A stretch of 64,000 bases of DNA, taken from positions 37,634,001-37,698,000 of the forward strand of contig OX597834.1 of NCBI GenBank assembly GCA_951406725.2. The letters are read 5' to 3'. Below the pieces are notes generated by a model, which had not been told where the DNA came from, searched no databases, and saw nothing but the letters and a program-made list of their open reading frames with translations. Origin of the DNA: Octopus vulgaris. Its lineage: Eukaryota. Position 1 is the first letter of the stretch, and each line of letters opens with the position of its first letter. Shown in pieces: positions 2,821 through 12,614 of the stretch. A program made the translations under genes and the position numbers.

Positions 2821-3335
2821 ATGCTCGGACTTATCTGTCTGCTGTGTAAATGATTATATATATATATATACACATAAAAGCTTCATACGTATCTTCAATA
2901 TTACATATGGTAGAATTATAGATAAAAAGAAAGGAAAATTATTAATAGGAGTTGCATATTATGGCTTGAAACTTCCTATTCAGAAATACATAAGCAATTG
3001 TTGGACGAATAGAATACAACCACTTAACGCAAATATTTAGGCAGCTTATTATAAGTTTTTCTTCAATAGCAGTGAAAACATCCGGTCTTGCATCATGGGA
3101 ATAGACTTATGATAAGGATCACAACTTATTACATATTAATATCGCTCGCAGGGCTGGAATATTTGTTGGGATTTGTCAATGCCGTGAATTCGATTGTCAT
3201 CCGCTGAAATGAAATTCGTGCTTTCGCATATAGAAAACTGTAAATAATGCATTGACTGGTATTGCGGAAGCTTGCCCAGCTGGAGCAAAGGTCGGTATAT
3301 GCAACTGAAACAGCATTGAAGTCCTAACACACACG

Positions 3336-8796: not shown

Positions 8797-9120
8797 AGTC
8801 AGTTCCCCCTGTGCCACGAGGCACATAAGTCCACAACATGTTCTCTCCATCCAGCTCTGTTTACTGCCTCTGTTATGGTCTCGTTCCGGCTTCTCCCCTC
8901 TTCTCGTCTCCTTTCTTTGCCAACGGTCCTTTGAGCCAGTTCCCCCTGTGCCATGAGGCACATAAGTCCACAATATGATCTCTCCATCCAGCTCTATTTT
9001 CTGCCACTATTCTGGGCTCGTTTCTGCTTCCCTACCATTTTCGTCTCTTTTCCTTGTTGATGGTCCTTCAACCCTTGTGGGTTTTCAGGGCTCCCTGATG
9101 CTCTCCCCACCTCAGGCTGT
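8797..9120 (-). mobile_element. Two tandem 3' ends of an RTE-clade LINE
   Basis: Duplicated CAGTTCCCCCTGTGCCA(C/T)GAGGCACATAAGTCCACAA; minus translation AVNRAGWREHVVDLCASWHRGN* resembles RTE ORF C-termini. Confidence 0.6.
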
Positions 9121-9645: not shown

Positions 9646-10054
9646 CGGTTTTGTCGTCATTCATCGCCAGTCTCTATAATCACTGCGAGCAGGAATCAAT
9701 GCTATCTGTTACAGACACACTTTGGTCTGTGGGTGTCAGACGCAAAGTCACACTTTAACTTTGGCCTTTCACACAACGGCAATGGACTTCTTAACAAGGA
9801 AACTGTTAAACTAATCGGTCTGGGGAATACTTCAGAAAATCTGTTTAAAACGATTGTCAGAAGCGATTGTCTTGTTTTGTAGTTGTGATGAATGAACTCG
9901 TCTAAAAACGCTGCGAGTTTTCTTTTTTCTTGTTTTGTTTTTGTTTTTTTACGAAGTGACGCACGTCGTCCGTCACCCGCCTCTGCGTGTCTTGAGAACG
10001 GAAAAAGTGGGAATATTTCGGAAAATCTGCTATTCGCCGTCCGCCTCTGAGTGT

Positions 10055-10541
10055 ACTTGTACTTGTACTTGTGACGGCGTTCACCCAGGGCGGGTTGAGC
10101 CGGCTTCTTCTCTGGTCCTGACGGCATCACGAACCATAGCGGCCCACGTTCGACGGTCCTGTACGAGGTCACTGGAGATAGCGAGCCATTCGCGGTTCCA
10201 TAGGATTCATAGAAGAAGTTTCGTGGGAATATTGAATTCACAAGCGGTCCCTGACATCCTGCATGCATATCCCGAGTGACGAGACACCCTGTTTGCCGCG
10301 GAGTCTCCACAGACGCAGGGACAGAACGATCTCGAAGCCGCCGGTTGCCGATCAGACGCCTCTTGGAATTTTCACCAGAGCCCCGTTGGCCACGCTGCAG
10401 CCATAATACCGCTCGGTGCCAGATCAATCCACCTTGGGTGGCTCTACCAGGAACCGAAGTTCCCGACGCATAGCTCTGACGCTGCCCGTTTACACCACCC
10501 TACCGCTTTGAGGAGGAGTTGGATTTTAGGGTAGGGTTGGA
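10055..10541 (-). mobile_element. Short internally deleted non-autonomous RTE LINE derivative
   Basis: 10-bp TSD CTCTGAGTGT (10045-10054 / 10542-10551); (CAAGTA)n tail; RTE-like C-terminus WNREWLAISSDLVQDRRTWAAMVRDAVRTREEAGSTRPG* fused to a GC-rich 5'UTR-like segment. Confidence 0.85.
10426..10537 (-). ncRNA. Putative HDV-like ribozyme at the 5' end of the RTE derivative
   Basis: P1 ACCCTAC/GTAGGGT followed by GG; L3 TCCTCAAA; P2 AATCCAAC/GGTGGATT (1 mismatch); P4 with GGAAC-TTCG-GTTCC; J4/2 CCAA; P3 imperfect. Confidence 0.5.
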
Positions 10542-10681
10542 CTCTGAGTGTGACTCGTGAATAAGGAAAGTGGGAATGTTTCAGAAAATCTACCATCCGT
10601 CGTTCGCCTCTGAGTGTGACTCGAAGATGAGAAAAGTGGGAATATTTCAGAAAATATGTTTAAAACGATTGTCAGATACCT

Positions 10682-10868
10682 TGATGAATTCTTTGCCATG
10701 AAACCACCTCAATTCTGGGAAGAGGGTATTTTCAAGTTAAAGGAAAGATGGAGACGCATTGTGCAACAAAATGGTTCATATTTGGTTGATTAAAACCATA
10801 ATGGCAAGTATTTATTGAACTTTTCCTTTCTTTTAAAAATCGGAACGAACTTTCCGGACAACCCAATA
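10682..10868 (+). mobile_element. mariner transposon 3' end with TIR
   Basis: EFFAMKPPQFWEEGIFKLKERWRRIVQQNGSYLVD*, then ACGAACTTTCCGGACAACCCAATA; same TIR at ~53588-53613. Confidence 0.85.
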
Positions 10869-12614
10869 TTAAAAAAAATTCGTTAACATATACAGGTCTT
10901 CTCAGAATTAATGTTAATAAACTCTAACAATATCTATACGCAGCGTTGCATTATTCTTAACATTTACTCACTGTGTCACTATATAGACAATATTTACATA
11001 TTGTGTGTGTACGTATAATCAGAGTGGCAAATTTTAATGAACATCTGTATACTAACATTTTTATGTCCTACGGCCATTTCAAATATTGATTTACAAATAC
11101 ACTCACTCACACACACCGACATATACACACTGATAATTTATACATGTATATATACACACACATACATACATATATATTTATACATTTATATATACACACA
11201 CGTACATACATATACATTTATATATACACACACGTACATACATATACATTTATACATAAATATGTATACACACAGACATACATTTATACATATATATATA
11301 TACACATACATACACATTTATACACATATATATGTACACACACAGACATACATTTATACATATATATATACACACACAGACATACATTTATACATAAATA
11401 TATACACACACACTCATACTTACACACATATACATTTATAAATGTATATATATATACACACACACACAAACACGTCCAAATATCAAAACACGTAAACATA
11501 CACATCTATACATGTATATACACACACATACAAACACATACATCTATACATATATACACACACAGAAAAAAACTTAAGCTGAAACTAATTATTTTTATTG
11601 ATTAATTATTGGCACGCTTAAACACATACACTGACTTACACACACATATGAACACATCTCCACTCTTAAAAATTCACACACATACACACACACACATAAA
11701 CGCACACATGTTCCCGTACACTAAAGAGATTGTATTAGAAATAAACAGCCGTTTTAAAATACGTGAATTCAGGCTCACATATATAATATACTCGTGTATC
11801 TGAACAGGTATCCTTCATACATAGTTTCATATATATATGTACGTGTGGGAAATGTTTCCATTTCAACCTATATAGTATCTTTATAGACGGAGCTAATTTA
11901 ATATACTCATGTGTTTGCGCCTATGTATACCCATATGTGTATATATCTTTCAGCATGGACAAACGCATGTGTGTGTTAGCATATGTATTTATATGTGTAC
12001 TTGTCTGGATTGGAATGTCTGTGTTTTATACATACATTTATGTAAGAATGTGATAGTTCACTAGAACAGTAGTGACCCCAGGCGGGATTAAAGAACTCGT
12101 GATTTGATAACCGCAGAGTAAATTAAATTTATTGAAATTTTTGTTGACAAATGTACATCTGTTTCGCTCCACTAAGCTTCTCGAAACACTGGCTATTAGT
12201 TTGGATTGACTGAAATACATTGACAAGTAGGTGATGAATAGTAGGAAAGGAAAAAAAAAAAAAAAAGAGTCGAGCAGAGTTTAGTTTAGTTGATCATTTA
12301 GTTATTTATCTATTTTGTTAAAAAGATAAATTGTTTTCTTGTATACGTGAACGGAAAGAGAAAAAGACGGGGAGGGGGGAACGTTAGCGGAGATATTTAT
12401 TTAGAGAGAGGGAGAATGGTCTAAAGTTTGGCAGGATATAGAAGTAGAGGTTGGCGTGTTGTTTCTACAAATATTTAAGCAAGTTTCTATAAAGTGTCTT
12501 GTGATTAATTAAGAATCTTATGGAGGAATTTGAGCGTGATTTGTACATAAACGAATATGATGCACTTAAGTATTTATGTATATTCGTAAATACGTGAGAA
12601 GACCAATGAAAGTA

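Follow-up and report, generated by a model that had tools for sequence, protein, structure and literature searches.

A bipartite non-autonomous RTE element of the octopus genome with a probable HDV-like ribozyme head

NARTc, RIME and SIDER2A are short, internally deleted derivatives of APE-type LINEs with an HDV-like ribozyme, Pr77, as head at the 5' end (Sanchez-Luque 2011, PMC3185411; 2014, PMC4035085). According to the passages available from these papers, L1Tc cleaves before the C at +1 with a P1.1 of a single pair, NARTc cleaves as well and Pr77-like sequences are mentioned beyond trypanosomatids (PMC3185411); LmSIDER2A cleaves in vitro, and the published head of SIDER1-beta is inactive with an adequate fold (PMC4035085). 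The octopus element described here is of the same build, with a predicted head of this kind and an animal RTE-type carrier in place of L1Tc/ingi, which carries NARTc and SIDER2A.

HDV-like ribozymes in RTEs and SIDEs are noted in a 2019 review, part of which also covers the R2 SIDEs (Eickbush 2012, as cited in PMC6765202). These lack an ORF, are released by a ribozyme and are moved in trans, and all of this would apply to the octopus element if its predicted release is correct; in contrast to the latter, which is dispersed and leaves target-site duplications (TSDs), they are specific for the 28S rDNA and use an RLE nuclease. In Perere-3, an RTE of Schistosoma mansoni, the element's 5' end is likewise the cut site of a ribozyme and the tail is of a similar type (GTAA), but that ribozyme is described as a twister T-variant for which the TSD supplies a P1 strand (Liu 2021, PMC8501958), whereas the octopus head is predicted to be HDV-like with a P1 wholly inside the element. 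Bov-A, RTESINE1/2, WALLSI3 and MAR4_MD are also joined from RTE 5' and 3' ends without a small-RNA head and, unlike the octopus element, are mammalian (Kojima 2018, PMC5786205). Both RTEs of bipartite build and SIDEs headed by a ribozyme (NARTc, R2 SIDEs) are already in the literature, and the principle is not new. Searches of the open literature for an octopus or cephalopod RTE ribozyme, and for RTE together with L1Tc or Pr77, gave no description of the family; Repbase or supplements may have it.

The window is the complete 64,000-nt (64-kb) stretch of Octopus vulgaris DNA that was analysed; the host assembly has 2.8 Gb in 227 contigs and is rich in AT and CA microsatellites. On the minus strand from 10541 to 10055 lies a 487-base insert, a worn copy of a short jumping element joined from the two ends of a 3.4-kb RTE (Table 1). 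The original prediction, made from the letters of the window, had described a perfect 10-bp TSD, a (CAAGTA)n tail, about 40 C-terminal RTE codons and a GC-rich leader of about 330 nt, and each was recovered. The TSD is ACACTCAGAG on both sides, the tail reads CAAGTA-CAAGTA-CAAGT (10071-10055), the leader has 56% GC over its 324 nt, and 39 codons (10200-10084) encode residues with 79% identity to the very end of an APE+RT protein of 1035 aa that is intact. Both flanks run on as a single unit of a repeat of ~60 bp found locally and match the neighbouring unit, which makes the target site recognisable. Neither a Pol III A/B-box match nor a tRNA was found in the element, which agrees, within the reach of these two tests, with the original claim that it needs no Pol III promoter. 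Just past the 5' flank, window positions 10640-10870 hold a repeat of much greater abundance, as judged from its very high summed contig depth, and 8800-9056 contains two copies of a 137-bp unit, which in our reading resembles the reverse of another RTE 3' end.

Table 1. Positions of the element and of its predicted head within the window.
Feature	Position	Strand	Remark
5' target-site duplication, 10 bp	10542..10551	-	
7-nt 5' addition	10535..10541	-	peculiar to the window copy; repeats family positions 12-18; creates the P1 of the original prediction, the predicted competing helix
Entire RTE 5' UTR, 324 nt	10211..10534	-	
P1, 5' strand	10528..10534	-	10534 is +1 of the family; predicted cut just 5' of 10534
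P2, 5' strand	10521..10525	-	AATCC in the window copy, AGTCC in the family
P3, 5' strand TCC	10512..10514	-	two C-G pairs and a U-U apposition; A-U in family D
L3, TCAAAGC	10505..10511	-	U and G at the HDV U20/G25 positions
P3, 3' strand GGT	10502..10504	-	
P1, 3' strand AGGGTGG	10495..10501	-	
P1.1, 3' side TG	10493..10494	-	predicted pairing with CA of L3
Extra conserved helix, 5' strand	10475..10482	-	partner strand 10423-10416; crosses P2; mismatched at one position in the window copy
cUUCGg hairpin, P4 region	10448..10465	-	double-sided changes between families
J4/2, CCAA	10434..10437	-	C10437 presumably the catalytic cytosine (from HDV rules)
P2, 3' strand GGATT	10426..10430	-	
Extra helix, 3' strand	10416..10423	-	
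ATG of the parent ORF and deletion junction	10201..10210	-	parent 331 joined to 3230; 1-nt microhomology
Final 39 RTE ORF codons and stop	10081..10200	-	out of frame with the ATG
Short 3' UTR and (CAAGTA)n tail	10055..10080	-	
3' target-site duplication	10045..10054	-	

The autonomous RTE with the same 5' UTR, for which a search had been proposed, was found by a DNA search of the host genome (1910 candidates, 40 scored), in which one locus continues into an APE reading frame. The two ends of this parent (L031), a decayed APE+RT element of 3.37 kb, are 91.6% and 91.7% identical to those of the window element. In the latter, parent base 331, which lies nine bases inside the ORF, is joined to base 3230; about 2.9 kb are deleted, and the entire 5' UTR and the final ~140 nt of the RTE are left. 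RTEs have a single APE+RT ORF, no ORF1, no RNase H, no C-terminal zinc knuckle and a short 3' UTR with a microsatellite tail, a list which is stated in part for Perere-3. The same features are found in the parent, with a single ORF of ~1000 aa for APE and RT, neither ORF1 nor RNase H nor zinc knuckle, and a short 3' UTR with a microsatellite tail, and the class was assigned from this ORF and domain layout and this 3' end, as compared with that list. APE and RT were the only Pfam domains of the intact 1035-aa protein. Near homologs include tapeworm, fish and cuttlefish proteins as well as contigs, and a metagenome scan yielded six distant loci with at most 34% identity. The first 340 nt were also considered as a SINE of their own that ends in (CTA)n, but the bases in question are where the parent ORF starts, and this reading was dropped.

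The 331>3230 junction is present in 15 of 30 loci, obtained with a query that selects for such copies, and two more come near it; the remaining loci represent the parent, partial copies, inversions or different deletions. A search for the exact 17-nt junction string gave 14 occurrences, spread over 10 contigs, as against 0 for the reversed control; these are the copies with a common junction that had been called for. A 66-nt junction query was spanned by 29 of the 41 matches listed, at least one of them with a different junction. In four sequencing runs, which consist of contigs and so carry no information on transcript starts or strand, no contig with an empty site occurred among the matches listed; no RNA run was among those listed as containing the sequence. 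The copies are dispersed and have the same junction, TSDs and the 3' tail of the parent, the marks of a SIDE. With the parent found and the junction common to at least 14 loci, the predicted internally deleted non-autonomous RTE is supported. The same-junction subfamily is small and old: its copies differ from the column majority by 2.1-9.4%, the window copy by 4.2%.

Short copies might instead never move as units, each being a fresh jump of the RT from near the 3' end of a full-length RNA to the start-codon region. Junctions of many kinds are found, with left ends concentrated at the ATG; in a sister family (B, see below), 24 of 24 short loci end at 317-340 with the ATG near 319 (the query covered only ~250 nt), inversions break at the same start-codon place, and no diagnostic 5' substitution, with one weak 3' site, marks the same-junction copies as one lineage. 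However, an exact junction at 14 or more loci with only 1 nt of microhomology is poorly explained by repeated independent jumps, and we regard this alternative as distinctly unlikely. Breakpoints of independent deletions and inversions clustered at the start codon can be seen at L088-L111, L016, L019-L026 and L028-L030, with several junctions visible. Inversions resembling twin priming, with the 5' end head-to-head with a 3' part, are frequent (L020, L022, L025, L028 and L030, and likewise L067, L068, L070 and L077-L079).

Three more families with the same UTR core were obtained by a protein search with the APE start and by DNA searches of the host genome: B, with copies 96-98% identical, and C and D (about 80%). 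Copies without anchor were dropped before counting (A 3/30, B 1/25, C 10/25, D 3/25; A is the family of the window element). The first letters of family copies are CTACCCTAAAG, counted from the equivalent of 10534. In family A, 12 of the 19 copies with tail have a 5' TSD that stops at offsets 0 to +3; four end at -4 to -25, among them the window copy at -7, and three have no TSD. For family B, the end falls at -2 to +2 in 11/22 copies. Duplications like the additional 7 nt of the window copy also occur in L012 and L017. The leader had been taken to start at 10541, 4 nt before P1, with cleavage 5' of 10537; its first 7 nt are a duplication, other copies begin at the equivalent of 10534, and the cut is now predicted 5' of 10534. 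The family start would thereby coincide exactly with the predicted self-cut site of an HDV-like RNA.

The first ~110 nt of the family are predicted to fold as an L1Tc-type HDV-like ribozyme with a 7-bp P1, P3 TCC/GGT, a U/G active-site pair in L3, P1.1 CA/TG, CCAA in J4/2 and a P2 of 4-5 bp. CCAA, which fits the C-N-R-A motif, and the cUUCGg hairpin are both present as originally described. P1.1 has two pairs in A-C (A-U plus C-G) and one in D. Two pairs of P3 are conserved and the third position is U-U in A-C and A-U in D; P2 is paired in about 91% of cells, with one-sided change only. The P4 region consists of conserved hairpins over about 55 nt, and no helix clearly closes it; the P4 stem is reported to be dispensable in silkmoth R2 (Eickbush 2013). 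L3 had also been read as TCCTCAAA, without the active-site G, and this was dropped after comparison with the printed L1Tc and SIDER2A sequences.

As far as the printed sequences go, the Pr77-type core has the same elements: a 7-bp P1 from the C at +1, P3 xCC/GGT, L3 TCAxxGy, a T after P1 and CxAA. Over P3 and L3, family D agrees letter for letter with LmSIDER2A and is close to L1Tc. The register on L1Tc and LmSIDER2A is our own reading of the printed sequences and agrees with the text on the C1-N37 pairing and the single-pair P1.1. In NARTc and SIDER2A, as here, downstream sequence may switch the fold according to the passages available. The octopus head differs from them in its long P4 region (about 55 nt, two hairpins) and in the U-U of P3 in three of four families.

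The exact fold of the original prediction (P1 ACCCTAC from 10537, L3 TCCTC, GG as P1.1) is very improbable as a working ribozyme. The window copy does form that P1 with seven Watson-Crick pairs, and in constrained nested folding this helix is better than native P1 plus P3 by 4.3 kcal/mol. But it needs duplication bases peculiar to this copy (three of 7 nt), is paired at 7/7 in only two of 27 family-A copies and has no counterpart in families B-D, and neither its L3 nor its P1.1 could be confirmed for the family. Its P3 (TCC/GCG), which the consensus had been expected to restore, stays mismatched, the family majority being CCC/GCG. It also puts an A at the L3 G position, and a G-to-A change there is reported to have abolished cleavage in Nasonia R2 (Eickbush 2013). 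The corrected P1 is paired at 7/7 in 10/27 family-A copies and at 6/7 or better in 18/27.

Each family opens with a different 7-mer which pairs with the 7-mer following the conserved core. Across A-D, 27 of 28 P1 cells are paired, 25 of them Watson-Crick, with double-sided changes at five of seven positions; offsets were set by eye per family, with an extra G in B and one mismatch in C. The P1 of C is accordingly paired at 6/7, and that of B can be extended to 8-9. Cognate P1 strands give 6-7 Watson-Crick pairs as against 2-5 for strands of different families. The L3 G is kept in 25/27, 23/24, 12/15 and 16/22 copies of A, B, C and D, the A-U of P1.1 in 26/27, 23/24, 14/15 and 20/22, and CCAA in 23/27, 23/24, 15/15 and 18/22 (79 of 88 overall). 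At the outer position of P3, family D has A-U (19/22) and the other three have U-U, with pairing in 1/27 (A), 0/24 (B) and 1/15 (C) copies; a G-U of P2 in the other families is G-C in D. When 15 copies were aligned with MAFFT, pairing was seen in 94% of cells, compared with 35-49% for slid partners. Shuffle tests gave 0/100000 and 0/500, figures which are not probabilities because the four families are related. For the family, then, an HDV-like 5' ribozyme is supported by comparative evidence, namely covariation and likeness to active ribozymes; this part of the original prediction stands, with a different register.

The HDV pattern alone is not specific, since a loose descriptor, written after the data had been seen, matches 8/2000 dinucleotide shuffles of the 125-nt head and 10 other sites within the window. 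The case for a ribozyme is therefore built on covariation together with position at the 5' end. The folding energy of the window head is no better than that of shuffles (z -0.08, pseudoknots unscored). Against Rfam, the window copy gave no ribozyme match and no twister at E≤5; in a check blind to the assigned register, a young family-B copy best matched HDV-F-prausnitzii and was aligned with it as assigned here, though weakly (15.6 bits against a gathering threshold of 44, E 0.96). This suggests a core that is widespread in HDV-like ribozymes instead of being restricted to Pr77. A covariance model run on the window and 11 loci, including the six from the metagenome scan, returned the window copy, one family-C copy and one 17-bit match; given this coverage, further families beyond A-D may exist. 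A tight pattern for an L1Tc-like continuation after P1 had no match in the host genome.

The sharp 5' end of the bipartite RTE could also be set by an internal Pol II promoter, the fold being a relic or a protective or protein-binding structure. In L1Tc, this core is also an essential promoter whose DPE reads CGTG, a CGTG lies near +29 to +32 in families B-D, and the weak P2 and P4 and the U-U in P3 point the same way. Yet family A has AGCG in place of CGTG while L3 G, P1.1 and CCAA are kept, and a DNA promoter leaves the P1 covariation and the near-invariant CCAA/P2 block ~100 nt downstream unexplained. A promoter without a ribozyme thus seems rather unlikely, and by analogy with L1Tc both roles can coexist.

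Two further features bear on the activity of the predicted ribozyme. An extra 8-bp helix is paired in 97% of cells, crosses P2 and dominates nested folds once transcribed, P2 being mostly absent as soon as it can form. Its role may be to switch the RNA off, as the attenuator located downstream does in L1Tc, or it may be how a UTR without catalysis really folds. No base of the core is lost in the window copy, and its native P1 has a probability of 0.02 in nested folding with natural upstream sequence. It is probably a poor cutter, because the 7-nt 5' duplication is predicted to capture the 3' strand of P1.

The bipartite RTE is a real element and its HDV-like head is probable. Anatomy, parent, common junction, 5' ends at +1 and P1 covariation are supported directly, and we consider it likely that the element is a short non-autonomous RTE derivative, copied by the parent protein, with an L1Tc-type HDV-like head cutting at +1. 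A Pol II transcript would run through the element or start at it; P1, P3, P1.1 and P2 would form co-transcriptionally and the equivalent of C10437 would cleave 5' of +1. After synthesis of a further ~15 nt, the extra helix would likely displace P2 and switch the RNA off. The RTE protein would then bind the retained 3' end in trans, and a copy would be inserted by target-primed reverse transcription, leaving TSD and tail; such copying in trans is given as established for SIDEs (PMC6765202).

In a chimera of family C, a foreign head is fused just before L3 and the 5' strands of P1 and P2 are lost, as would be expected if an intact ribozyme removed such a head by cutting; 13 of 40 matches begin at the fusion base. 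Chimeric loci are L071, L073, L076, L081, L083, L085 and L086 (also L059 and L060), and their head is another RTE-like 5' UTR similar to L112. Three other family-C loci (L069, L074, L082) have a common upstream repeat and yet keep P1, which was counted against the ribozyme account; they may reflect a preferred target or a composite element.

One animal genome thus joins bipartite non-autonomous RTE derivatives and predicted HDV-like heads, reported separately for RTEs before. The head is available in four naturally covarying versions which are easy to assay, one of them young (copies 96-98% identical). Start-codon breakpoints and the half-ribozyme chimera make the link between ribozymes and bipartite elements proposed by Kojima testable. 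RTE 5'/3' UTR templates are described as being used for gene writing. More speculatively, the families may belong to an RTE lineage with an active Pr77/L1Tc-type ribozyme-promoter head shared with trypanosomatids, whose folded 5' UTR would also catch the RT at the start codon and cause repeated breaks. We think this extension unlikely; if true, it would provide a mechanism for Kojima's question why ribozyme-headed clades (RTE, Ingi, R2) spawn bipartite elements.

Other abundant APE-bearing elements are also present in the host genome (e.g. C3:74085309 and C17:1306745), with 32-37% identity to the family described here and open frames of 1095-1126 aa.
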